A DNA stretch of 64,000 nt. It comes from Escherichia phage APECc02. The stretch lies in the sequence record NC_041869.1; one strand, written 5' to 3'. Below are positions 1 through 59,862 of the stretch, piece by piece (position 1 is the first letter of the stretch; every line of letters starts with the position of its first letter). The notes beneath the pieces were generated by a model, which worked only from the letters and a program-made list of their open reading frames with translations, had not been told where the DNA came from and searched no databases. The translations under genes and the position numbers were made by a program.

Positions 1-501
1 GTGAAAATTAAGATCTTTGCTATTATTTTGAGCGCATTTTTATCGCTGCCTGTTGTTGCAGCACCAAAACAAAAAGTATATCATACTTGCAAGCCCTCAG
101 ATACTAAGGAAAACATTCTGGCATGCAATATCTACAGGGAGGCTAGAGGGGATGGCACGATGGGTATGCTGGCATCAGGATTTGCCACACTAAACAGGAA
201 ATCTCACCCCAAATACCCAGACACTATAAGAAAGATTGTCTACCAACCTAACCAGTTTTCGTGGACAAACCACGGCAAAACTTTTAAGGTGACAGAAAAA
301 GATTCATGGGATCACGCTAAAAGTCTTGCAAAGATGCTTCTAAAGGTCTATAATAACAACCATGTTGCATACATGGCTATGGACATAACAGGTGGAGCAA
401 CACACTACCATACAACCAAAGTACGACCGAAATGGGCAAAAAAGATGCAGAGGACAGCTCAATTCGGGAGCCATATCTACTACAAGGAGCGCAATAAATG
501 A
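1..501 (+). CDS. SleB-like cell-wall hydrolase with signal peptide
   Basis: GTG-initiated ORF at window edge (could extend upstream); N-terminal hydrophobic signal peptide MKIKIFAIILSAFLSLPVVAAP; motifs NIYREARG, LNRKSHPKYPDTI, QPNQFSW typical of SleB/Hydrolase_2; stop overlaps next ATG. Confidence 0.6.
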   Translation: MKIKIFAIILSAFLSLPVVAAPKQKVYHTCKPSDTKENILACNIYREARGDGTMGMLASGFATLNRKSHPKYPDTIRKIVYQPNQFSWTNHGKTFKVTEKDSWDHAKSLAKMLLKVYNNNHVAYMAMDITGGATHYHTTKVRPKWAKKMQRTAQFGSHIYYKERNK

Positions 502-2480
502 TCGTAAACAGTAATGAAACTAAAGCGGTACTAACCGGGAATATGGAGGTCACCAGGGGCTCAATTTCTCTGAACAAAGAGACTTTTGGGCTAATCATTA
601 AAGGGATTTACGAAGATAAGGTGCTGGCAAGCTGCCGTGAACCAATCTTCAATGCCGTGGACTCCCATGTTGAGTCTGGACGGGGTGATGTACCGATCAT
701 TATTCACTCTCCTACAGACCTTGAACCATACTTCTTTGTGCAGGACGTTGGATTGGGCATGTCAGAAGAGATGGTCCGCAACACTTTCATGAACCTCGGG
801 GAGTCAACCAAGCGCAACAGCAACGCTCTGGTAGGTAATAAAGGTGTTGGTTCAAAGGCTCCGTTCAGCATGGTGGACACTTTCGATGTTATCAGTGTGC
901 ACAATGGTGTTGAAAGCACATATCTATTGTTCTTGGATCAGGGTATCCCAAACGTTACCAAGATCCGCGAGCGGAAGACTGAAGAGCACAACGGGGTAAA
1001 AGTTCAGTTCCATGTTAAGAAAGAGCATGTCCTGAAATATCGCACTGCTATTGCATCGTGCTTACGCTATGCGAAGTTTCCGTTCATCGTCACCGATCCT
1101 ATGACCAGTAAGATGTTAGAAGGTGACAAGGTTGAGGCACAGTATCATTACGAGAAGGATGGCTGGAAAATGACCATCCTGAAAGGTTATACCAGTTCTG
1201 ATGAGAGCCGTGTTGTGATGGGTCACCAACCTTACCGCTCCAAGTTCCTGGAGACATTGACCGATTACCCTGCAATCTGCGTGGAAATTCCTATTGGGGA
1301 TTGCAATATTAACCCTGGGCGTGAATGGACCATAGAGGGCCATGACGACGGTGGATTCCAGGATCGCCTGGAGGCCTTTGTCAAAGAAGGTATACGTCTT
1401 CGCGGGGCAGAAGTTATTGCAGAACTGGAGACGGCAAAAACCTCCGCAGAAGCACGTGAAATGATGAAGAATAGTGGAGTGTTCGGACACATCTTCGGCA
1501 AAAACTTTATGTGGAACCGTTGGGAAGAAACAGGGCTTGGCGACTTAGGCGATTGTGAAATTTTCGCTGGCGGCTTAAATAAAGGCCGCATAGGCTATGC
1601 TCGTTACGGAAAGTCGGAGTTCTTACGAGGTGTATACCTTGTATTTAACGACGGAGATGGTAAATATAACCGAAATAAGTGTAACTACTTAAGCGAAATC
1701 ACCGGACGCAACGTTTTCTATTGCCGGAACACGGATCTGGTGAAAGAGTTTAAAGAGGCGGCACACCATCCGTTCTTTGCAGATACTGTCAAATTGTTAT
1801 CAGAGCTCCCTCGCCGACCTGCGAAGAAAGGTGAAACAAAAACTCATTACGAGCCAGGTTATTGGGTTAAAAAGCTTGAGAAGGATGGTTACTTCCGTCG
1901 TGAACGTATTACTAAGGCAGAGTTCAAGAAGATTAAGCACTGCATTCCTTATGAGGGTGATATCCAACGTGGAAGTTGTTGGCTGGGACAGCTGAGTAAC
2001 ATCTACCAGCAAAATTATGACCGTGTGCGTGCTGCACTCCAGATTCCTGAAGGTGAAGATCTGTACTTGGTATCAGAATCTCGTCTGCTTTGGACTGATC
2101 CTGATTGCCAGTATGTTACAGAGAAGAATGTGGAACATTTGTTGAAAGAGGATGCTTGGAAATTCTTACTGACTCGCGCAGCAAATGAAACTTCATATGA
2201 CAGCTTGTATAGACAATTAGGGAAAATTATCCCCATGCAGGATTTTGGAAATTATCGGCCACATTTCCACAAGTGGGAAGGTAACACCGCGTGGAAGCAC
2301 AGTGAGCTAAATCATCGTGCCAAAATCTTAATCGCCAACCGGGTTAAGTGCGGGAAGGCCTATATTGCAAGATTGGAAAAGAAATATCCACTTTTGAAGC
2401 ATGTGGGCTTGAAATATTGGGACACCCCTGCTATGATTGAATACCGTGAGCTGATCGATACAAAGAATAACATCAAATAA
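498..2480 (+). CDS. GHKL-family ATPase (MORC/Hsp90-like Bergerat fold), 660 aa
   Basis: N-box EPIFNAVDS, G1-box DVGLGM, G2-box GNKGVGSKAPFS in the first 150 residues; RBS AAGGAG upstream; remainder of protein unassigned. Confidence 0.6.
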   Translation: MIVNSNETKAVLTGNMEVTRGSISLNKETFGLIIKGIYEDKVLASCREPIFNAVDSHVESGRGDVPIIIHSPTDLEPYFFVQDVGLGMSEEMVRNTFMNLGESTKRNSNALVGNKGVGSKAPFSMVDTFDVISVHNGVESTYLLFLDQGIPNVTKIRERKTEEHNGVKVQFHVKKEHVLKYRTAIASCLRYAKFPFIVTDPMTSKMLEGDKVEAQYHYEKDGWKMTILKGYTSSDESRVVMGHQPYRSKFLETLTDYPAICVEIPIGDCNINPGREWTIEGHDDGGFQDRLEAFVKEGIRLRGAEVIAELETAKTSAEAREMMKNSGVFGHIFGKNFMWNRWEETGLGDLGDCEIFAGGLNKGRIGYARYGKSEFLRGVYLVFNDGDGKYNRNKCNYLSEITGRNVFYCRNTDLVKEFKEAAHHPFFADTVKLLSELPRRPAKKGETKTHYEPGYWVKKLEKDGYFRRERITKAEFKKIKHCIPYEGDIQRGSCWLGQLSNIYQQNYDRVRAALQIPEGEDLYLVSESRLLWTDPDCQYVTEKNVEHLLKEDAWKFLLTRAANETSYDSLYRQLGKIIPMQDFGNYRPHFHKWEGNTAWKHSELNHRAKILIANRVKCGKAYIARLEKKYPLLKHVGLKYWDTPAMIEYRELIDTKNNIK

Positions 2481-2490
2481 GGAGACCAAG

Positions 2491-3699
2491 ATGATTTTCA
2501 TCTACGAACATTTCAAAACCCGTAAAGAAGCACGAGACCGCCGTGCAGAACTTGAGAAGAAGGGTTTCACATGTGCCATTGAGAAAGGCGACACAACCTG
2601 GACACTGGCAGTTGGTGCCCCAGAGTTGTTCGATCCTGACCGTGACAGCGTCTGCTACACCCGTGAGGATTTTGAAACCCGCGAAGAGGCCCGTTTATTT
2701 CGATACGGTCTGGAAGATAACGGTAAGTACGCTATGATCTTAGATTTAGGCGAAGGTTCCGTTAAACGTTGGGGCGTGGTATACCCACTGTGTGTTGTTC
2801 ACGGTGTGGGGTTCACTGGAGTAGCAATCAAGTCAGAAGAACCTTTAGTAGAAGTCAAAGATCCGGTGCTGGAAGTGGTGAGTAGTGTGTCTCAGCAACA
2901 GACTCGAAGCATCGAACCTTTGGTAGTTATTTGCGGGGAACTCCTCCAGATCACCTGCAACGAAGGCATTTTTGAAATTCGCCGCAGCGAAAGTGAGGAA
3001 GTTTACCAGAAAGTCTTCGACCATATCTCTGTTCAGGAATATGATGAGGCAATTGGTGAAATCCTTGTCTGGCTGGAACGCAAGAATGAGTTCACCACAC
3101 TTGCAGACAACCTGATCATGAAAGATGGTAAGCTCTACTACTACGGTGTAGAGATGCGATCCACCATTGCAAAGAAAATTGAGAAAGATTATGCAGACGG
3201 AACACTGGATGACCGCTATGTGAAATTCCTCGTTCGCCTGCTACGCAATCCTTCTGCAAAATCTGTAAACATGCTCTACGACTTTATGCAGGCCAACGAT
3301 ATCCAGATTGCAGAAGATGGTCGAATCATTTGCTACAAAGGGGTTCAGTTTAACGGCAGCAAGTGGGTGGATTGGCACAGTGGTAAAGTCCCACAATACC
3401 AAGGTGCTTTTGTATCCATGCCTCGTAACTTTGTAGAGGATGATCCTGAAGCTGCGTGCTCCTATGGCTTACACTGCGCCAGCAAAGAGTATGCAAAGAG
3501 CTACGGCACTGTAATGACTGTTATGGTTGACCCTGCAGATGTGGTTAGTGTGCCATACCAACACAATAGCGCTAAGTGCCGTGCATGCCGCTATGAGATT
3601 GTGGTAGCTCCTCCGGAAGCACGCAAAGATGGAGACCCTATTGAATATGTAGTTGATCGTGACGGTAACACTATCGACATTCTTTACGAGGAGGCGTAA
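2491..3699 (+). CDS. hypothetical protein, 402 aa; two N-terminal SPOR/RRM-like repeats and Cys/His-rich C-terminus (tentative)
   Basis: ATG 11 nt after GHKL gene with AAGGAGA RBS; internal duplication of F.TR.EAR...L...G...W motif; C-terminal CSYGLHCASKEY and KCRACRY; function not assignable. Confidence 0.55.
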   Translation: MIFIYEHFKTRKEARDRRAELEKKGFTCAIEKGDTTWTLAVGAPELFDPDRDSVCYTREDFETREEARLFRYGLEDNGKYAMILDLGEGSVKRWGVVYPLCVVHGVGFTGVAIKSEEPLVEVKDPVLEVVSSVSQQQTRSIEPLVVICGELLQITCNEGIFEIRRSESEEVYQKVFDHISVQEYDEAIGEILVWLERKNEFTTLADNLIMKDGKLYYYGVEMRSTIAKKIEKDYADGTLDDRYVKFLVRLLRNPSAKSVNMLYDFMQANDIQIAEDGRIICYKGVQFNGSKWVDWHSGKVPQYQGAFVSMPRNFVEDDPEAACSYGLHCASKEYAKSYGTVMTVMVDPADVVSVPYQHNSAKCRACRYEIVVAPPEARKDGDPIEYVVDRDGNTIDILYEEA

Positions 3700-5069
3700 T
3701 GGAAAAAGGGCAGTATGATGTAGGCACAGATGCTGCCCTCGTTGCAATCATGAGTGGTGAGAATGTCTTCGTTTCAGGACCCGCAGGTTGTGGGAAGACG
3801 TACCTCATCAACATGATCCAGTCAATGTATGGAGACTCTTGCATAACGGTTGCCCCGACAGGGGTAGCCGCTTTAAACGTTAATGGAGCAACAGCACACC
3901 GAACCTTCGATCTTGCAGCAGGTGTGAGCATGGAGTCAGACTGGACCGCAATAAGGGCAAAAACAGCAAAGCCTTTGAAAAGCAAGGCATTTACCATCCT
4001 AATTATCGATGAAATCTCTATGATCCGTGCTGATAAGTTTATAGAGATGGATAGGAAACTCCGCTTCCTTCGAAAAAATGACAAACCTTTCGGAGGCATA
4101 CAGGTCATATTGTTTGGCGATTTTTACCAGGCCCCTCCTGTTGTCTCTTCTATGGAGAAGGAGGCCTATTTCAACTTCTACCATACGGACCTGTGTTGCT
4201 ATACCGAATCTTGGAAAGAGCTTGACCTCCACAACATAGCCCTAATAGATCAGTTCCGACAGGAGTCTATTCGATTTGCCACAATGCTCAACTGTGTTCG
4301 TGAGGGTCGTCGCATAAAAGAGGTTGTAGCAGAACTTAATGCTCGCTGTTACAAAGGAGGTGTACCAACAGACGCTCTCACAATTTGCGCCACCAACAAA
4401 CAAGCAGAGGAAGTGAACAGAAGGTTCTATGATGCCATCAACGCCCCAGAGAAGGTATACACTGGTGAAATGAAGGGTAAGTTTCCCTCCACCTTGCCAG
4501 TTGAGCAGGAGATGAAGTTGAAAATTGGCATGAAAGTTATGATAACCGCCAACGATGTTGACCCGACGCACAAAGTACCTTATTATGTTAACGGAACACG
4601 TGCCACAATTGTTAAATTTAAGAACAAGGCAGTGGTGGTAGAGCTTGAAGATGGAACACAGGTTGACATAGAGCAAAGGTTGTGGGAGAATAACGAGTAT
4701 AAGCCATCTCAGAGATACAACATTGCAGAAAGGAAGATGGAGAAGTTTATAGAGAGGGTAGTGATTGGGTCATACAGGCAACTTCCTCTGAAATCTGGGT
4801 ATGCCGTAACATCTCATAAAAGTCAAGGACTTACGCTAGATTGTTACAACCTGGACCTTGGAAAGAACGGAGCTTTCTCTCCTGGGATGACGTATGTTGC
4901 TTTGAGTCGGGTTAAGACAATACAAGGAATAAACTTGTTGCGTCCACTAAGAGAAGTTGACATTATTGTTGACCCGCGAGTCGTAGAGTTTTACAATACA
5001 ACATTCCCTGACTTAGACAAAATTGTCAGGAAAGATTTTGAAACCAGAGCCGAAGAGGGGGACGTATGA
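3699..5069 (+). CDS. SF1B DNA helicase, Dda/Pif1/RecD-like
   Basis: Walker A GPAGCGKT near N-terminus, C-terminal VTSHKSQGLTLD motif, size and motif order as T4 Dda; start overlaps upstream stop (TAATG). Confidence 0.75.
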   Translation: MEKGQYDVGTDAALVAIMSGENVFVSGPAGCGKTYLINMIQSMYGDSCITVAPTGVAALNVNGATAHRTFDLAAGVSMESDWTAIRAKTAKPLKSKAFTILIIDEISMIRADKFIEMDRKLRFLRKNDKPFGGIQVILFGDFYQAPPVVSSMEKEAYFNFYHTDLCCYTESWKELDLHNIALIDQFRQESIRFATMLNCVREGRRIKEVVAELNARCYKGGVPTDALTICATNKQAEEVNRRFYDAINAPEKVYTGEMKGKFPSTLPVEQEMKLKIGMKVMITANDVDPTHKVPYYVNGTRATIVKFKNKAVVVELEDGTQVDIEQRLWENNEYKPSQRYNIAERKMEKFIERVVIGSYRQLPLKSGYAVTSHKSQGLTLDCYNLDLGKNGAFSPGMTYVALSRVKTIQGINLLRPLREVDIIVDPRVVEFYNTTFPDLDKIVRKDFETRAEEGDV

Positions 5070-5407
5070 GTTTGTGGAGAAATATAGTTAACTACGTGTG
5101 TGGCAATCCAACTCCTGAAGAGAAGGATGTTGTGATTCACGATTTTACTAAAAGATCCCGTGAAAAAGATCTACTGTTAACAAAGGTGACTGATAAAGAC
5201 CCTGCAGTAGGGGACTGGGCAGGTTTTGCGTTTACATCGGACAAATACACCTTTAACAAAGGTGACTACCTTGTTGTGGATTTTAACGAAGACATTGAGG
5301 GTGCTGAACCTTACTATCAGACCCTTATTGTTGCAGGGTGTGTTAATCTATCTGCAGGCATGCACAGTTTGATTCTTTTTGAGCTTGACTCTGAAGACCT
5401 TGAGTAG
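5066..5407 (+). CDS. hypothetical protein
   Basis: 113-aa ORF, ATGA overlap with helicase stop; no recognisable motif. Confidence 0.5.
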   Translation: MSLWRNIVNYVCGNPTPEEKDVVIHDFTKRSREKDLLLTKVTDKDPAVGDWAGFAFTSDKYTFNKGDYLVVDFNEDIEGAEPYYQTLIVAGCVNLSAGMHSLILFELDSEDLE

Positions 5408-5413
5408 TAAGAT
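5385..5413 (+). promoter_or_regulatory. putative sigma70-like promoter TTGACT-N17-TAAGAT
   Basis: -35 TTGACT at 5385-5390 inside end of upstream ORF, 17-nt spacer, weak -10; would drive MTase gene. Confidence 0.3.
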
Positions 5414-5424
5414 GTGAGTATAAA

Positions 5425-5441
5425 GGGGAGGCCTCCTCCCC
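5425..5441 (+). promoter_or_regulatory. 5' UTR stem-loop GGGGAGG/CCTCCCC
   Basis: 7-bp GC stem with 3-nt loop followed by CA-rich leader and SD AAGGAGA before ATG 5469; same architecture as the early-gene leaders downstream. Confidence 0.4.
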
Positions 5442-5468
5442 ACAAAAAACTAAGGAGAGCACCAAACG

Positions 5469-6794
5469 ATGAGCAAAACCAAATTAGAACTTACCTGGAT
5501 AGGTAAAAACGAGCGCAAAAAGTTAGAGCCACACATTTTGTTAGAAGATTCTAGCAAATCTTACCACAGCCAGAAAGTGACCGAAAACGATATTTTTGAT
5601 AATAAACTGATTTTTGGAGATAACTTATTAGCATTGAAGGCGCTAGAGCAAGAGTATGCAGGCAAAGTGAAGTGTGTTTACATAGACCCACCATTCAATA
5701 CCGGGAGGGCTTTTGAGCATTACGATGATAGCCTGGAGCATTCCATTTGGCTGGGCTTAATGAGGGATAGGTTAGAAATAATTCGTAATCTTCTAAGTGA
5801 TGATGGGGTAATATTCGTTCACTTAGATGATTGCGAAATGGCGTATTTAAAAGTTTTGATGGACGAGATTTTTGGTCGTGCAAATCAGTTAAATACTATA
5901 TCGATGACCACAAATTCCCCTTCGGGATTTAAGGCAACAGGAGCCACAGTTTTCTCCACAGCAAACTTTTTGCTTGTATATGCAAAAGATCGCACCCAGA
6001 AACCGCTTAACAAAATCTATATACCTAAAGGGTATGATACAGGATATAACAAATACCTATTAAACCCGGATGACCATTATAAAAATTGGACGTGGTGCGG
6101 TATTGCCGATGCGTTTGCAAAGGCCAATGGCTATAAAGATGCAAAAGAAGCCAAGAAAAAACTGCCTGATACATTCGATGATGAATTAGCACAATTCGCA
6201 ATTGATAATGCAGAACGTGTATTTCAATCTGTTGCAATTGGTGGTGGTGCTAAAATAAAGAGAAAAGAAACTATCGAGAAGTCAAAGAAAGATAGGGATA
6301 AGGTTTATGTACATCCAAATGAGGATGTTGAAGGATTTTATATCGCAAATGGTAGGCAAATGGTCTTTTACTCCAATAGGCTTTTGGAAATTGACGGTGA
6401 GATGCAACCTGCGGAACTAATAACTGATGTTTGGACAGACATTAGTTGGAATGGAATAGCAAATGAAGGCGGCGTTAGTTTCAAAAATGGGAAAAAACCA
6501 GAAGCGCTTTTGAAGCGGATTTTCGAAATGTGCACGCGAGAAGGCGATTTGGTATTGGATTCATTCGGTGGTTCGGGAACTACTGCTGCTGTAGCTCATA
6601 AGATGAAAAGACGCTGGATCTCAATCGAGCTAGGTGATCATTGTCATACCCATATTATTCCGCGCTTGGAAAAAGTGATCGATGGCGAAGATCAAGGTGG
6701 TATTTCTAAGTCTGTAAACTGGCAAGGTGGTGGTGGCTTCCGTTATTACAAACTTGCCCCGGCCTTAGTTGCGAAAGATAAGTCTGATCAATAA
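5469..6794 (+). CDS. DNA methyltransferase, beta-class amino-MTase (N6-adenine or N4-cytosine)
   Basis: motif IV DPPFNTG precedes motif I DSFGGSGTT (circular permutation typical of beta class / Mod-like MTases). Confidence 0.75.
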   Translation: MSKTKLELTWIGKNERKKLEPHILLEDSSKSYHSQKVTENDIFDNKLIFGDNLLALKALEQEYAGKVKCVYIDPPFNTGRAFEHYDDSLEHSIWLGLMRDRLEIIRNLLSDDGVIFVHLDDCEMAYLKVLMDEIFGRANQLNTISMTTNSPSGFKATGATVFSTANFLLVYAKDRTQKPLNKIYIPKGYDTGYNKYLLNPDDHYKNWTWCGIADAFAKANGYKDAKEAKKKLPDTFDDELAQFAIDNAERVFQSVAIGGGAKIKRKETIEKSKKDRDKVYVHPNEDVEGFYIANGRQMVFYSNRLLEIDGEMQPAELITDVWTDISWNGIANEGGVSFKNGKKPEALLKRIFEMCTREGDLVLDSFGGSGTTAAVAHKMKRRWISIELGDHCHTHIIPRLEKVIDGEDQGGISKSVNWQGGGGFRYYKLAPALVAKDKSDQ

Positions 6795-33111: not shown

Positions 33112-33375
33112 ATGAAACGTCTGGATCAGCTTAAATTAGTTCAGTACATGGCCTACAGAATTCTTGAAGTCCAGAAAGGTAGCAAAAAAGAGGTTTGCGA
33201 GAAAGCTTATAAGATCTTCACTCGTAAAAAAGATGATTGGATGTTACGCCAGACCAAAAAGGCTGACATCTTGGGGTACCTGGAAGAAGAGATCCGCCTT
33301 GAAGAGCAAGAAGAGATCCGCCGTAGTGAGGCAGATTATCAGGCAGCTTGGGAAAACTGGATGAGCAACAAATAA
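33112..33375 (+). CDS. hypothetical protein
   Basis: 87-aa ORF with AAAGAGGAAA RBS; last plus-strand gene of the block. Confidence 0.5.
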   Translation: MKRLDQLKLVQYMAYRILEVQKGSKKEVCEKAYKIFTRKKDDWMLRQTKKADILGYLEEEIRLEEQEEIRRSEADYQAAWENWMSNK

Positions 33376-33394
33376 TACAACAAGGTGCACGGTC

Positions 33395-33420
33395 AGGGGC
33401 TTAAAGCCCCTTTCTTTTTG
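33395..33420 (+). terminator. rho-independent terminator
   Basis: hairpin AGGGGC-TTAAA-GCCCCT followed by TTCTTTTTG. Confidence 0.65.
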
Positions 33421-34028
33421 TCTCCTCTTTTCCTACCACAAATGGCCCCGCCTGGCAAATGGAATAATCAACAAGCCAGCAATTAACCCCACTGTACAAA
33501 CATACATATAAAATAACTATTGCATAATTTTTCATTGTGTGGTAGCAGGGCCATTTTTACACGTTTTTCCTTCCAAAATTGCACGTAATGCAGCATTTGC
33601 ACAAAATTTAACCTGATGCATATCTTCAATAGCTTGTCAACAACTAAAAATCTTTATAAGTCATACACTTACATAACTACAAAAGCGTTTTCTACGTGAA
33701 AAATCGAGTATAACTATAGCCGCCAGATCTCAGAATTTACGTACGCTCGCCATTCTATAGCCTGCTAAGCATTTATTCCAACCATAGAATAACGGAATAG
33801 TCAATACCTGCATAAAATAATTATTCGTGTAAACTGCATAACATAAATCGGCCCAGGTGTCAACATTTTTCGTAAACAGTCTGGAATTGTCACGTTAGGT
33901 TACCATAAGCAGAGAAATCTTTAGTCGTCTAATGTTTACTGTACGTTACTATACTAACTGAAATCATTAGATGACTAATAGAAAGATAAGAAATAATTAA
34001 CAATACAATTATTTTATCTGTAACAATA

Positions 34029-34205
34029 AGGCAACTATGCAAACGAATGGCATGGCGCGACGGAGTCGCGACATAATATAAAAGCAGTAACCATCACCCC
34101 CGTGATAGTTTGTCTGCAAACTATTAATCAGATCATAGTTGCCTTGTATTTAGTTAATCATGACATAACAAGCAAGGCAACTATAGATCTGCTAATAGTT
34201 GCCCT
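34029..34205. repeat. four copies of 11-mer AAGGCAACTAT in alternating orientation (candidate protein-binding sites)
   Basis: plus-orientation at 34029 and 34174, inverted at 34136 and 34195; 34135-34146/34173-34184 form a 12-bp perfect inverted repeat 26 bp apart. Confidence 0.6.
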
Positions 34206-34317
34206 GCTTTTATATTATGTCATAGAAACACCCGAAGGGGTGACCAAAGGTTACCTGGCATAGCCAGTGAAAGATTATTAACTTGCTAATCTTTATCATG
34301 CAAACGAATGGCATGGC
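34037..34317. repeat. 20-bp perfect direct repeat ATGCAAACGAATGGCATGGC
   Basis: copies at 34037-34056 and 34298-34317. Confidence 0.65.
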
Positions 34318-34338
34318 TTATCATTTCTGTGTAAATAG

Positions 34339-34390
34339 TCTATGCGTAAACTGTCAAGGCGTAAACAATCTATGCGTGAACAGTGAAACA
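34339..34390. repeat. short direct repeats TCTATGCGT(A/G)AAC and GCGTAAAC
   Basis: TCTATGCGTAAAC at 34339, GGCGTAAACA at 34359, TCTATGCGTGAAC at 34369. Confidence 0.5.
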
Positions 34391-34423
34391 TGAAATAATA
34401 ACAGTTGTTATTGTGTCATATTG

Positions 34424-34505
34424 TGCTGCAGCGTGTTGAGTATGTTTAAGGTGCCCAGTATGTCACCATTATGTCACTATTGTGTCATAGTGTCATAGTA
34501 TGTCA
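34424..34505. repeat. iteron-like array of TGTCA(C/T) pentamers at about 10-11 bp phasing
   Basis: TGTCA at 34424, 34461, 34472, 34483, 34491, 34501 (plus 34362, 34525). Confidence 0.6.
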
Positions 34506-35083
34506 GACAAGTTTTTCCCCTCTTTGTCAAGTGCTGCATGAAAAAATTTACAAGCTGGTATGGTAGCATTTTTGCGGCCTTGTTTACATTCAGTAATGTA
34601 TGTATAACCCTTGATGTGTGGGCGTTTAGACGTCTAGACGGTCAGAAGTCTGCAGGTCAATATCTAATCTATTGGCTGCTAACTATATCCCCCACAAATA
34701 ATAAGAAATATAATTGTTATGTGCGTAAACAGTAACTCATGTTATCAATCCCTGTATGGATCGCCAGTGGTGCGCATAATGGGTATTATGTTAAATTGCC
34801 CGTAATGATAACTATTCTCACAATGATAGGTATTCTCATTCACCCCCACAAGATAGGTTGCAAATGTTGTGCCACTGTGTGAACGGCCTAGCCTATTAAT
34901 TTGCCTCACTGCCTTGATATTTGAGAATTGTTATAAGAATGAGAAGTATTCCCATTTCGTCCGCCTGGCAGCACTCCTGTAGGTCCTGCAAGGACTCTAG
35001 CTGAAAGCTAGACCCTTCGGGCCTCCCTGTAGGTCAGGTCAAAATCGTGGTAGAATTGGGCCTGTTCAGATATTTCTGGCTGA

Positions 35084-35643
35084 CTCTTCAGGTCTGTGTG
35101 GGAAAAGCCAACCTCTCCGGCGGGGCAGGGGGTCATGACGGGAAAATTGCAGGTCAATTAAAAAATTTACGTGGTGTATGAAGCGCTCTTCAGGTAAGGC
35201 ATGTATTATGGGATGAAACCCTCTTCAGGCAATGATATTTGTGGGTGTGATATTTGCTGGAAAGCCAGATATGACGGGACTCCCGGCGGGGCAGGGGTAG
35301 TACAGACAGGGAAAATATGAGAATGTAGTTGGGGAAATTGATCAGACAGGTAGAGTATGGAATATGTTACAAGTATGTTAAATATGGAGGTTGAATATCT
35401 GTAGGATTTGTGTGTAAAATCAAAGACTTAAGGGGTGTTGTGGTATTTTCTATAAATAATTCAAGTTTAATAGGCAATATTTGTCTCTATCCGCTTTGTG
35501 TGGTAAACAGATTCAGATTAGATTGGTTTACAAGTGTATACATAATATACAAATTAAAGATACAAGAAACCCCCCTCCCCCCTTCGGCTACCATTCACCT
35601 TTTCCTCTGACTGGTACTTAAACACTTATTCAGACTCTTCAGG
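35084..35643. repeat. dispersed direct repeats CTCTTCAGG (x4), CCGGCGGGGCAGGGG (x2), CCTGTAGGTC (x2)
   Basis: CTCTTCAGG at 35084, 35186, 35221, 35635; CCGGCGGGGCAGGGG at 35117 and 35283, each followed by G-rich GGGAAAAT. Confidence 0.55.
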
Positions 35644-35993
35644 TTATCACCCATATATCATATGGCAGTGACTGGTGTCCTCCGGCCCCTCTTTCGTCAC
35701 CCGTCCGCTTCGCCATGCTAATGCCATAGCTAATGGTTCGGTTGTTCACCCTGTTCACTCAGGTGTATCTCTATACCCCTTCAAACCGAAGAGAACAGAA
35801 AACCCGAATTACTCGGTAAAAGAAAAGAGAAGAACTTAATTTTATCAGGATAGGCAAGAATGTCAAGGCATGACTGCTCACTAAACAAGCAAACAGTCAT
35901 GTGTGGGAGGTAAGTGATTGTGGTGGTAGGAAATTTAGTTGAAAGATGTGTTATAGGTGCTTCCAGCACTTTAGCCGGGCAGCTAATTGTGTG

Positions 35994-58849: not shown

Positions 58850-58878
58850 CACAAAAGTTACCTATCGCTGTGATAGGA

Positions 58879-59862
58879 TTAACCTTTCACGAAGTGGTTA
58901 TTAAGCAGTTGTCTGTGCTGAACCCACCCACAAAAGTTGGCAGACCAGAATTTACCATCACGGTCTTGATGGGTTACACCTTCCTGCCAAGTACTGATGT
59001 CTTGTGTGATTTCACATGAAGACAGGTAGTAGTTTAAACGTTCCATTGCGTTATCGTGATCCATAGGTGTTGCCTGGTGCTCGTAAGGGCTTGCATGAAT
59101 ACGATCCCCACCAATCAATTTTTTAGCCACACTATCTGCCTTTTCAAACGTGCTGTCAATATTTCGATAAGATACTTGTGCACAGCAACTAGCACTGATA
59201 GACAGAGCTTCTTTAGTATCGAGAATGCAGAGCTTTCCTTCTGTGTCACGTACAGCGTAGTTAAACTCTCCGTCCAAATAAACGTGCTCTACATATGGGG
59301 TGTGCCATTGACCCGGTTTAAGGATTTCAGGAGTGCTATTCTCAAGAGCCTCCCACATACAACTAGCTAACATCTGAATCGTAGGATCCGCATCGTGCCA
59401 GCAACGGAGGTGGAAAAAATTATTCCACTCGGTGCTTGTTACAACTGTTTTCATGCGCTGGAACGGCTCCACTAAGCGGTTACATACTTGCTTATGGTAA
59501 CCAGCAAGGGCGAACTTCTCTGCATGCCAAGCGGCGTTTTTTGCAGCTTCTTTCCAAAACTCTTCAGGAGTTAGCTCCATGTCAGTGTACTCTACACGGA
59601 TCTTTTGATCGTGTTCCCCACCATCTTCCATTCCTCGCTTATTTACACCGAAGCGAACTGGCATTGCCGGATTCTCCACAATCTGTTGCAGCATCTTGCC
59701 GACAGGTACTGCACGGGAAGACATGGCGTTTCGGCTGAACACTCGGTGCGTCATAAGCTCTGAGTGAATAATTCGAGGATACTCTAGTTCAAAAGTGGTG
59801 ATACGCTTACCTTTCTCGGAAATGCTGTCAGCAATAATCTTTGCAGTGCACAGTTTTAGCAT
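58879..59862 (-). CDS. thyX: flavin-dependent thymidylate synthase
   Basis: ThyX signature HRVFSRNAMSSR (RHR...S.R). Confidence 0.8.
   Translation of the reverse strand: MLKLCTAKIIADSISEKGKRITTFELEYPRIIHSELMTHRVFSRNAMSSRAVPVGKMLQQIVENPAMPVRFGVNKRGMEDGGEHDQKIRVEYTDMELTPEEFWKEAAKNAAWHAEKFALAGYHKQVCNRLVEPFQRMKTVVTSTEWNNFFHLRCWHDADPTIQMLASCMWEALENSTPEILKPGQWHTPYVEHVYLDGEFNYAVRDTEGKLCILDTKEALSISASCCAQVSYRNIDSTFEKADSVAKKLIGGDRIHASPYEHQATPMDHDNAMERLNYYLSSCEITQDISTWQEGVTHQDRDGKFWSANFCGWVQHRQLLNNHFVKG

Follow-up and report, generated by a model that had tools for sequence, protein, structure and literature searches.

Bacillus SleB, a germination-specific lytic transglycosylase, is specific for the muramic-delta-lactam of the spore cortex, a modification absent from E. 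coli, and the secretory and signal-anchor-release (SAR) endolysins, such as Lys44 of Oenococcus phage fOg44, Lyz of P1 and R of phage 21, are the lysis enzymes of their own phages. In FtsN, glycan binding involves the Gln/Ser of strand 1, a Trp and the Arg that follows it. Closer to the locus studied here, Table S3 of rV5 lists rIIA as gene 1, a cell wall hydrolase (166 aa, PF07486) as gene 2 and rIIB as gene 238, the annotation of gene 2 dating from 2013. For the homologue CB7_83 a signal peptide was predicted and expression was toxic, and both the signal peptide and the conservation of the gene across all Vequintavirinae genera were reported in 2020 (PMC7344957). HIDEN-SEQ transposon data for Bas54 (98% identical; Extended Data Table 8, given as sites hit/TA sites) class the endolysin bas54_0202 as Essential (0/24), whereas the hydrolase bas54_0065 (32/36), rIIA (90/101) and rIIB (56/59) are Non-essential. 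The dispensability of the hydrolase covers rich medium, with K-12 and one clinical isolate as hosts, and in the clinical isolate there was no significant depletion (log2FC -0.88, q 1.0).

We analysed a window of 64,000 nucleotides from Escherichia phage APECc02 (NC_041869.1), the first 6 kb of which match many Vequintavirus genomes at about 98% identity and in the same gene order. Judged by this similarity, the source is a Vequintavirus, an rV5-like E. coli myophage and another isolate of a known type, and the region is the hydrolase-rIIA-rIIB-helicase block, the start of the rII region already annotated in Vequintavirus. On the plus strand, the hydrolase gene (1-501) is followed by rIIA (498-2480; 660 aa, beginning with a GHKL ATPase domain; full-length match to phrog_612, E 1.8e-124), rIIB (2491-3699; 402 aa; phrog_609, E 2.1e-61) and a gene for a Dda/Pif1-like helicase (3699-5069; PF05970 PIF1, E 1.1e-32; phrog_325 Dda-like helicase, E 8.5e-112), the start of which shares 1 nt with the rIIB stop in a TAATG junction. 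The original prediction had put the hydrolase at the head of a replication operon, which does not agree with this order, since the next two genes are rIIA and rIIB and only after them does the array reach a replication-type gene, the helicase. A gene for a MoxR ATPase, an anti-defence gene, lies two genes upstream of the hydrolase, and rIIA/B counter RexAB, a role that is putative for this lineage, as is the triggering of CARD-gasdermin systems. As this is an already annotated start of an rII region, in which a dispensable exported hydrolase precedes classical rIIA and rIIB, the locus is an ordinary one and not a new cell-wall system.

The identification of the ‘GHKL ATPase’ gene and the 402-aa gene as orthologues of T4 rIIA and rIIB is shown by direct alignment: at 28% identity in the N-terminal GHKL region for rIIA (BLASTP E 3e-21), and at 37% identity over residues 172-371 for rIIB (E 4e-39), homologues of which carry PF26926 Phage_T4_rIIB. 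The GHKL domain itself matched Pfam HATPase_c_3 (E 1.7e-8). The conserved C-terminal domain of rIIB (2884-3615, plus strand; residues ~132-375) was delimited from the phrog_609 match (132-372), the dense invariant columns and the T4 rIIB alignment.

The hydrolase gene starts with GTG and encodes a SleB/CwlJ-family (Hydrolase_2) protein of 166 aa, orthologous to rV5 gene 2 and bas54_0065. In phage WalterGehring (L001, 98% identical) an in-frame TAA is found 45 nt upstream of the same GTG, so that there is no upstream continuation of the ORF; the concern that it might be part of a larger protein could thus be settled, the gene being complete and its start confirmed in relatives. The interval between that TAA and the GTG in WalterGehring holds a GGAG ribosome-binding site as well as a hairpin that is rich in G+C and has a T-run (CCCCGCTTCGGCGGGG-ATTTTCTATT). 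A terminator-like hairpin thus lies directly 5' of the hydrolase gene, and we found no convincing promoter upstream of it, promoter-like matches being not above chance. At the other end of the gene, the proposed translational coupling to the GHKL-domain gene is confirmed by an ATGA overlap (498-501, plus strand), read from the sequence, in which the rIIA ATG (498-500) overlaps the hydrolase TGA (499-501), and by an AAGGAG 8 nt upstream of this ATG. The same overlap is present in a further relative (L011) and in rV5, whereas in Klebsiella PVP-SE1-like phages the two genes do not overlap but are separated by 170 bp.

Several lines of evidence assign the hydrolase to the SleB family, as had been predicted. 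It matched Pfam Hydrolase_2 (PF07486) with an E value of 2.1e-19 and 70.4 bits (cutoff 27), no other Pfam domain being found in the 166-aa protein, and a sequence search of the PDB gave the catalytic domain of SleB (4F55, E 2.5e-6), EARGD standing opposite ESRGE. The AlphaFold2 model (pLDDT 88), compared to the PDB with Foldseek, matched only SleB catalytic domains (probability 1.00, TM to target 0.75-0.78). The predicted catalytic residue is Glu47 (codon 139-141, plus strand) in the motif YREARGD. It lies opposite the ESRGE glutamate, which performs catalysis in SleB, and, like 16 other alignment columns, it does not vary among the homologues compared. Related Hydrolase_2 genes occur in 1335 phage records. 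From the profile matches and the predicted structure, the product of the first gene is shown to combine a signal-peptide-like N-terminus with a SleB/CwlJ-type catalytic domain that keeps the catalytic glutamate.

The signal-peptide-like N-terminus comprises residues 1-20 (1-60, plus strand; MKIKIFAIILSAFLSLPVVA) and reads MKIK-IFAIILSAFLSLPVV-AAP, with a basic n-region, a mean Kyte-Doolittle hydropathy of 2.29 over the 19 residues 3-21 and small residues at -3/-1 (VVA followed by A), the likely cleavage site lying between VVA and AP. It is outside the globular fold of the AlphaFold2 model, with a pLDDT of ~51. With its many Ile, Leu and Phe residues and its AxA-type end, the hydrophobic segment resembles a cleaved signal peptide more than a SAR anchor, which is typically only weakly hydrophobic. 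Diverged homologues in at least four groups of phages keep a hydrophobic N-terminus that ends in an AxA-like or lipobox-like sequence: signal-like N-termini were seen in Certrevirus, PVP-SE1-like, Phapecoctavirus and T5-like homologues, and lipobox-like ends in some metagenomic homologues. The prediction of a signal-peptide-bearing hydrolase is thus upheld.

The 402-aa rIIB protein does begin with two repeats, in line with what had been proposed. Unit 1 (2497-2616, plus strand; residues 3-42) and unit 2 (2650-2796, plus strand; residues 54-102) have the same beta-alpha-beta-beta topology in the AlphaFold2 model (E3-8, H11-23, E27-32 and E37-42 in unit 1; E54-61, H64-78, E82-85 and E94-102 in unit 2), residues 1-52 align with residues 53-116 by BLASTP (E 2e-4), and homologues down to ~35% identity keep an R-x-x-A-R ... 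W pattern without exception in either unit. What we could not substantiate is that these repeats are peptidoglycan-binding SPOR folds. The SPOR profile (PF05036) scored 19.3 bits against full-length rIIB, below the cutoff of 21, and 23.2-23.8 bits against the isolated fragment, covering model positions 12-49 of 76; this scoring was limited to unit 1 and to close relatives, unit 2 having no Pfam match even at E <= 10 and the units of more distant rIIB homologues no SPOR match. Unit 1 aligned with the FtsN SPOR domain by BLASTP (E 0.009, 28% identity over 47 residues), sharing F-x-x-x-x-x-A ... L ... G-F ... W-x-x-x-V/I-G, but of the glycan-contact residues the Trp alone was aligned; the Arg after it is replaced, and the Gln/Ser falls outside the local alignment and is not evident. 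Compared with the ~70-aa SPOR fold of FtsN, RlpA and CwlC, each unit has only ~40 aa, and unit 1 lacks the second helix and the last strand. The fold match of the units is generic, and a profile search with the module hit no more than 9 of 1.8 billion proteins, the 7 fetched ones all being rIIB N-termini, fragments or small unit-bearing proteins, none with SPOR-protein architecture. Hydropathy and the homologue alignment gave neither a signal peptide nor a conserved membrane segment in rIIB, the sole hydrophobic stretch (residues 95-113, Kyte-Doolittle 1.69) not being kept even at 74% identity, which argues for a cytoplasmic N-terminus. Given this missing export signal, the marginal score of unit 1, the generic fold and the single aligned Trp, sequence and model comparisons make peptidoglycan binding by the rIIB N-terminus improbable, and the SPOR idea fails on the terms originally set for its refutation. 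The N-terminus probably consists of two cytoplasmic mini-domains, a lineage-specific replacement of the T4 rIIB N-terminus with no cell-wall binding.

The original proposal implies a link between the hydrolase and these repeats, in which hydrolase, rIIA and rIIB would form one functional cell-wall module and the rIIB repeats would bind peptidoglycan or glycan fragments released by the hydrolase. The ATGA coupling, the marginal SPOR match of unit 1 and the adjacency of hydrolase and rIIA, which Vequintavirus shares with the diverged Klebsiella PVP-SE1-like phages, are consistent with such a module, and the adjacency might just conceivably reflect a loose functional association. However, one lineage (L006) has rIIA-rIIB with the hydrolase missing from that position, Certrevirus has the hydrolase with no rII genes in the same slot (see also PMC7344957), and in Phapecoctavirus, T5-like and Pakpunavirus phages the hydrolase occurs in contexts unrelated to rII. 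As each occurs independently of the other in related phages, a functional partnership is unlikely, and with the size, distribution and cytoplasmic character of the rIIB units also against it, we regard the module as very improbable.

The predicted separation of the hydrolase from the lysis genes was confirmed: slur16 and Bas54 encode a separate 156-aa lambda-R-like endolysin elsewhere (phrog_90, E 4.7e-56), and the spanins adjoin the terminase. The hydrolase might still be a secretory or SAR endolysin, a partly redundant second lysis enzyme that is exported in advance and switched on by the loss of membrane potential caused by a holin or pinholin. It matches phrog_938 "endolysin" (E 1.7e-27) and several records name it "endolysin" or "SleB", but these annotations rest on homology alone. 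The toxicity of CB7_83 would also fit, as would the small two-transmembrane holin-like protein that overlaps the hydrolase 3' end in Certrevirus (PMC7344957; gp089 in CR8) and the citation of CR3_087 as implicated in host lysis (PMC7344957); the gene downstream here, however, is rIIA and not holin-like, and the segment favours a cleaved signal peptide over a SAR anchor. Moreover, the lambda-R-like endolysin of Bas54 is essential despite the presence of the dispensable hydrolase, which therefore cannot replace it, and we consider a second lysis enzyme unlikely. It is also quite unlikely that the exported hydrolase acts early to alter the envelope in competition or defence, e.g. by excluding superinfecting phages, by conferring resistance to lysis from without or by countering an envelope-linked defence of the host. 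Its place in a non-structural array, where anti-defence and accessory genes are also found (MoxR ATPase, rIIA/B), points in this direction, as do the homologues in other phage families, which lie among early or nucleotide-metabolism genes and not near lysis genes, and laboratory dispensability is typical for such genes; yet the comparison with the one clinical isolate did not show the hydrolase to be conditionally essential (q 1.0), and peptidoglycan cleavage has no obvious way to exclude other phages.

We favour, as reasonably probable, the view that the hydrolase is an accessory periplasmic muralytic enzyme that sits beside the rII genes with no joint mechanism, the rIIB repeats being cytoplasmic. 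It would be exported by Sec and its putative signal peptide cleaved near VVA-AP, leaving a basic mature protein of ~145 residues, possibly stabilised by a Cys30-Cys42 disulfide, that would act on peptidoglycan from the periplasmic side without a holin, probably as a lytic transglycosylase by analogy to SleB. As an accessory factor and not the lysis enzyme of the phage, it would serve during infection to weaken the sacculus or remodel it, e.g. aiding lysis in hosts or conditions outside laboratory sampling. The adjacency to rIIA and the ATGA overlap would then reflect tight packing in a dispensable host-interaction gene block.

Compared with Bacillus SleB (PDB 4F55 / 4FET), the phage enzyme shares the catalytic fold, the family HMM and the glutamate motif, but is only ~24% identical, lacks the N-terminal peptidoglycan-binding domain and consists of a single domain with a putative signal peptide, in a phage of a Gram-negative host; as this host has no muramic-delta-lactam cortex, its substrate specificity must differ. 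Like the secretory and SAR endolysins, it is a predicted phage muralytic enzyme with a predicted N-terminal export signal that would not need a canonical holin; unlike them, it is dispensable, the essential enzyme being the separate cytoplasmic lambda-R-like endolysin, it has a different catalytic fold and its hydrophobic segment resembles a cleavable signal peptide instead of a SAR anchor. The rII genes resemble those of T4 in adjacency, order and dispensability in a standard host, whereas the rIIB N-terminus (residues 1 to ~105) is unrelated, its two beta-alpha-beta-beta units being confined to rIIB proteins of the Vequintavirinae type and a few small proteins. Finally, rV5 gene 2 and its Vequintavirinae orthologues (bas54_0065, CB7_83, CR3_087 and CR8 gp090 "SleB") are the same gene as the one described here: in rV5 it likewise encodes 166 aa with PF07486 and lies immediately 5' of rIIA with a 4-nt overlap, and close Vequintavirus orthologues show no material difference, whereas in Certrevirus the small two-transmembrane protein takes the place of rIIA/rIIB after the hydrolase.

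Within its first 6 kb, the window matches 119 phage records with about 98% identity; for 82 records the match extends over 80% or more of the length. Nearly all of the records belong to Escherichia phages of the genus Vequintavirus, the rV5-like myophages with genomes of about 137 kb. The annotated order in these records is a putative cell wall hydrolase, SleB or endolysin, followed by rIIA, rIIB, a DNA helicase, a hypothetical protein and an N6-adenine methyltransferase. In rV5, gene 1 is rIIA (660 aa, HATPase_c_3), gene 2 a "cell wall hydrolase" (166 aa, PF07486, pI 10.0), gene 238 rIIB and gene 237 a PIF1-type ATPase (PMC3606486 Table S3). Judged by this table and the record annotations, the arrangement is thus known and already annotated in a phage genus that has been well sampled; for rV5-like phages, earlier publications cover the gene, its family and signal peptide, and its place beside rIIA. 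A further observation concerns 16 GenBank records (MG0656xx) titled 'Campylobacter phage', with Campylobacter jejuni as host, which carry no annotation, are about 98% identical to the Vequintavirus region and are probably mislabelled or contaminant assemblies.

The hydrolase ORF (1-501, + strand) has its GTG start at window position 1, which raised the possibility that it continues upstream in the full genome. In the 98%-identical relative WalterGehring, an in-frame TAA lies 45 nt upstream of the equivalent GTG, and between the two there is a G+C-rich hairpin with a T-run (CCCCGCTTCGGCGGGG ATTTTCTATT), followed by GGAG 7 bases before the start. The in-frame stop, hairpin and ribosome-binding site rule out an upstream extension in two relatives, and the hydrolase gene is therefore complete. 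A sigma-70 promoter scan around the hydrolase in one relative gave 14 sites against 10.9 +/- 3.5 expected, not above chance, and the interval from the upstream hairpin to the start codon accommodates no promoter.

The assignment of the 166-aa product as a SleB-like hydrolase is borne out by family profile, fold and catalytic glutamate. It matches Pfam Hydrolase_2 (PF07486) with 70.4 bits (cutoff 27, E 2.1e-19) over profile positions 2-100 of 100, as well as PHROG 938 "endolysin", and consists of a signal-peptide-like segment and a single catalytic domain, with no other Pfam domain at E <= 0.1. Sequence matches to the SleB catalytic domains 4F55 and 4FET align its YREARGD with ESRGE, the carrier of the catalytic glutamate; Glu47 pairs with the Glu of ESRGE, is unvaried in 10 homologues and belongs to 17 columns unvaried among hydrolase homologues down to about 33% identity. 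The AlphaFold2 model, built from an alignment of eight sequences (mean pLDDT 88), had 4F55 and 4FET as its sole significant PDB matches (Foldseek probability 1.00, TM to target 0.75-0.78).

The signal peptide, called heuristically from a basic n-region, a hydrophobic h-region and small residues at -3/-1, shows all three features, and they are kept in homologues, in agreement with what had been predicted. Residues 1-21 comprise two lysines, a 15-residue hydrophobic core and a proline, followed by VVA/A or VAA/P (MKIK / IFAIILSAFLSLPVV / A-A; Kyte-Doolittle mean 2.29 over 19 residues), giving candidate cleavage sites after residues 20 or 21; Pro at +1 disfavours cleavage at VAA/P. In the AlphaFold2 model this stretch is predicted with low confidence and is not part of the globular fold. 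The mature protein is strongly basic, with 26 Lys+Arg versus 10 Asp+Glu, and its two cysteines occupy positions 30 and 42. Homologues from Certrevirus, Klebsiella PVP-SE1-like phages, Phapecoctavirus and T5-like phages have N-termini of different sequence that are likewise hydrophobic and end in ALA/K, VLA/K, VVA/K or SHA/T, and some metagenomic homologues have a lipobox-like TASC end. SAR endolysins keep an uncleaved N-terminal transmembrane domain of weak hydrophobicity, with many Gly, Ala, Ser and Thr residues. The hydrolase segment is rich in Ile/Leu/Phe, has a Kyte-Doolittle value of 2.29, ends in VVAA and resembles a cleavable signal peptide. Homologues occur in all Vequintavirinae genera, and one from Certrevirus, CB7_83, has a predicted signal peptide and was toxic on expression, with data not shown (Buttimer et al., PMC7344957). 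This toxicity is the sole hint in print of a peptidoglycan-cleaving activity. Judged from sequence, Sec export of the hydrolase is a strong inference. The enzyme would be exported, lose its signal peptide by cleavage and then act on the sacculus as a holin-independent lytic transglycosylase, in a role that may be auxiliary or condition-specific.

The hydrolase stop overlaps the next start in an ATGA at 498-501 with AAGGAG upstream, which upholds the proposed translational coupling to the GHKL gene. The GHKL domain is present (HATPase_c_3, 35 bits versus a cutoff of 25), but this gene (498-2480) and that of the 402-aa protein (2491-3699) encode rIIA and rIIB and not replication proteins. Indeed, the former matches the rIIA PHROG (phrog_612) over its full length (residues 1-658, E 1.8e-124) and aligns with T4 rIIA from residue 1 (28% identity, E 3e-21, BLASTP), while the latter matches the rIIB PHROG (phrog_609) over residues 132-372 (E 2.1e-61) and T4 rIIB with 37% identity over 204 residues (E 4e-39, BLASTP); PF26926 Phage_T4_rIIB is precomputed on all of its database homologues. 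Between the two genes lie 10 nt, the Shine-Dalgarno sequence overlaps the stop codon, and the rIIB stop has one base in common with the helicase start. Downstream, the same-strand array continues to methyltransferases, primase/helicase and DNA polymerase; placing the hydrolase at the head of a "replication operon" thus suits the wider array only loosely and is wrong where rIIA and rIIB are concerned.

In the relative with a 74%-identical rIIB, the rIIA frame (3630-5986 of that locus) is called as three ORFs of 407, 254 and 124 aa, which could reflect an insertion, a frameshift or an assembly problem. Two database proteins are probably chimeras produced by assembly or gene calling: P0072 (330 aa) has an rIIA-like N-terminus joined to an rIIB C-terminal domain, and P0005 (498 aa) has TPR repeats joined to an rIIB C-terminal part of 98% identity. 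However, rIIA-rIIB fusions are known among T4 mutants.

The original prediction had also described two repeats at the start of the 402-aa protein as resembling peptidoglycan-binding SPOR folds. The repeats are real: the two units match each other (E 2e-4), R11/A14/R15/W37 and R64/A67/R68/W94 are unvaried across rIIB homologues, and AlphaFold2 (pLDDT 73) gives each unit the same strand-helix-strand-strand topology (residues 3-42 and 54-102). The SPOR resemblance is confined to one of them. The full protein scores 19.3 bits against SPOR (PF05036; cutoff 21) and the isolated N-terminal fragment 23.2-23.8 bits, in unit 1 only and over model positions 12-49 of 76; the score is 13 bits in the lineage with 49% rIIB identity, and there is no match in the 35% lineage or in any unit 2. 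The complete SPOR fold of about 70 residues (beta-alpha-beta-beta-alpha-beta) is absent from the rIIB N-terminus. FtsN binds glycan through residues of strand 1 (Gln and Ser) and of strand 3 (Trp and Arg). When the rIIB N-terminus is aligned by BLASTP with the SPOR domain of E. coli FtsN (47 residues, 28% identity; E 0.009 as a single comparison), W37 pairs with the FtsN tryptophan as the sole glycan-contact residue aligned; FtsN WNR corresponds to WTL in rIIB, and strand 1 reads IFIYEHF, without Gln-x-Gly-Ser. The original prediction named a ferredoxin-like fold without glycan-binding features as what would refute it, and by this standard the reading of the repeats as peptidoglycan-binding is refuted.

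rIIB opens with a charged sequence (MIFIYEHFKTRKEARDRR), which is no signal peptide. The protein has a single hydrophobic window, residues 95-113 (Kyte-Doolittle mean 1.69), considered as a transmembrane segment by which the repeats might reach the periplasm; it was rejected, being modelled as a strand followed by a region of pLDDT < 50 and not kept at 74%, 49% or 35% identity. A profile of the N-terminal module found 9 matches among 1.84 billion representative proteins; the seven fetched were rIIB N-termini, fragments or small proteins of 42-150 aa carrying the unit, and none of these seven sequences, judged without annotations of the matches, had a SPOR-protein architecture. A single-unit profile, too short for such databases, gave 3 matches, all trivial, in a collection of 5.8 billion proteins. 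What remains for the rIIB N-terminus is a lineage-specific cytoplasmic module. As a separate observation, the unit (F-K-T-R-x-E-A-R ... D-x-G ... R-W-x-V) also stands alone in three small metagenomic proteins, P0135, P0136 and P0137, as a single unit of 42 aa, as two units in 150 aa and as one unit in 134 aa, and resembles a small mobile module; no family has been assigned to it.

Could the hydrolase be the lysis enzyme of the phage? The related genome slur16 has a separate 156-aa endolysin of the lambda-R type after the DNA ligase gene (phrog_90, E 4.7e-56; MKLDKNVQRKAFLDMIAYSEGTDNGRQ...), without a signal peptide, and an Rz-like spanin pair that adjoins the terminase; the rV5 paper names this lambda-R-type enzyme (Gp89) as the lysin and leaves gene 2 undiscussed. 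Decisive here is a 2025 preprint that reports a saturated transposon library of Bas54 (10.1101/2025.11.20.689424), a phage that we equated with MaxBurger; the latter has 98.2% identity to the first 6 kb of the window, and the match begins at 58858, which is also where the Bas54 annotation table has the hydrolase gene start (58858-59358). Counted as TA sites with an insertion over all TA sites in the gene (Extended Data Table 8), the hydrolase orthologue bas54_0065 had 32/36, rIIA (bas54_0066) 90/101 and rIIB (bas54_0067) 56/59, all non-essential, versus 0/24 for the essential lambda-R-like endolysin bas54_0202 (10.1101/2025.11.20.689424). The separate endolysin and spanins, together with this table, rule out the hydrolase as the main endolysin, and its dispensability beside an essential lambda-R-like endolysin means that the SleB-like enzyme is an accessory gene and not the phage endolysin. 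We consider a role as a redundant endolysin using the secretory route unlikely. In the four genomes inspected from phage groups with such enzymes, the SleB-like gene is remote from annotated lysis genes, and in the one tested case it is dispensable; the role of these hydrolases might therefore differ from end-of-cycle lysis, and early holin-independent wall remodelling, infection of non-growing cells with altered peptidoglycan or inter-phage competition may be considered.

A function in competition or defence seems more doubtful still. The MoxR ATPase two genes upstream of the hydrolase was strongly depleted in a clinical isolate and validated by the authors as anti-defence; the hydrolase itself was without significant depletion in that comparison (log2FC -0.88, q 1.0) (10.1101/2025.11.20.689424). 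Of the neighbouring genes, the orthologue of the Dda/Pif1-like helicase (window 3699-5069), bas54_0068, is non-essential in K-12 (66/73 sites) and strongly depleted in the clinical-isolate comparison (log2FC -6.32, q 0), and the hydrolase, rIIA and rIIB, lying between it and the MoxR ATPase, are not depleted (10.1101/2025.11.20.689424). A joint cell-wall module of hydrolase and rIIB, suggested by their proximity and by the SPOR resemblance, is very improbable. Overall, we find it probable that the hydrolase is an exported accessory muralytic enzyme that sits beside an independent rIIA/rIIB pair.

The occurrence of the genes in other lineages bears on this independence. In the lineage with 74% rIIB identity the arrangement is as in the window, with the 4-nt overlap kept, and in the Klebsiella PVP-SE1-like lineage (35%) a Hydrolase_2 gene lies immediately 5' of rIIA with a 170-bp gap. 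A metagenomic lineage (49%) has a MoxR-like ATPase, a 122-aa gene and rIIA-rIIB-helicase, with the hydrolase not at this position, and Certrevirus CR8 has the hydrolase, a 62-aa two-transmembrane protein, a 61-aa protein and the helicase, without rIIA/rIIB (also PMC7344957). A word-indexed collection returned 10 matches to the hydrolase; tblastn on phage genomes was far more informative and matched Hydrolase_2 relatives of the gene in 1335 phage records from Vequintavirinae, Stephanstirmvirinae, T5-like Demerecviridae, Pakpunavirus and other groups. In Phapecoctavirus, T5-like Epseptimavirus and Pseudomonas Pakpunavirus the gene sits among small hypothetical or nucleotide-metabolism genes, and no rII gene was found near it in these three genomes. 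From this distribution, the hydrolase and the rII pair therefore behave as independent cassettes that are coincidentally adjacent in some lineages.

In CR8, the rIIA-rIIB slot is occupied by two small genes (4477-4860 of that locus). The product of the first, the 62-aa protein annotated 'membrane protein', has two hydrophobic stretches, and its gene and the hydrolase gene have 4 nt in common; its CB7 homologue is described as two-transmembrane (PMC7344957). The 61-aa protein is soluble, and the helicase comes next.

Two further features of the window lie outside these genes. About 2.5 kb at 33375-35914 are without an ORF of at least 70 aa; + strand genes on the left converge there with those on the - strand to the right, the sign of the GC skew flips, direct repeats with 15-nt spacing (GCGTAAAC...) occur at 34331-34387 with a further copy at 34710, and several inverted repeats lie around 34020-34220. 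The region, which may be an origin or other essential cis element, apparently corresponds to the 'non-coding' box of rV5 and to an intergenic region of about 2 kb in Bas54 that tolerates no transposon insertions (10.1101/2025.11.20.689424). A perfect G+C-rich hairpin (GGGGAGGCCTCCTCCCC) at 5423-5439, between a 113-aa ORF and the N6-adenine methyltransferase gene, has a T-run on its - strand side only, all neighbouring genes being on the + strand. Rfam gave no match at or above a family's gathering score anywhere in the window.

We believe that two corrections are useful: the GHKL and 402-aa genes are rIIA and rIIB, and the SPOR/peptidoglycan idea for rIIB fails. Putatively exported SleB-like hydrolases are found again and again, away from canonical lysis genes, in over a thousand phage genomes, and the lineage-specific N-terminal module of rIIB could matter for how host defence senses rIIB or is countered by it. 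As a tentative generalization, signal-peptide-bearing SleB-like hydrolases might form a widespread accessory class of large virulent phages of Gram-negative hosts, and the rIIB unit a separate interaction module; this beta-alpha-beta-beta unit could be an undescribed module tuning which host factors or defence systems rIIB engages. Protection against RexAB-type exclusion by rIIA/rIIB is known for T4 and T6, and the N-terminus of T4 rIIB is unrelated to that of the rIIB analysed here. The hydrolase, in turn, differs from SleB proper, the spore cortex-lytic enzyme, in dispensing with the N-terminal peptidoglycan-binding domain that precedes the catalytic domain in SleB.
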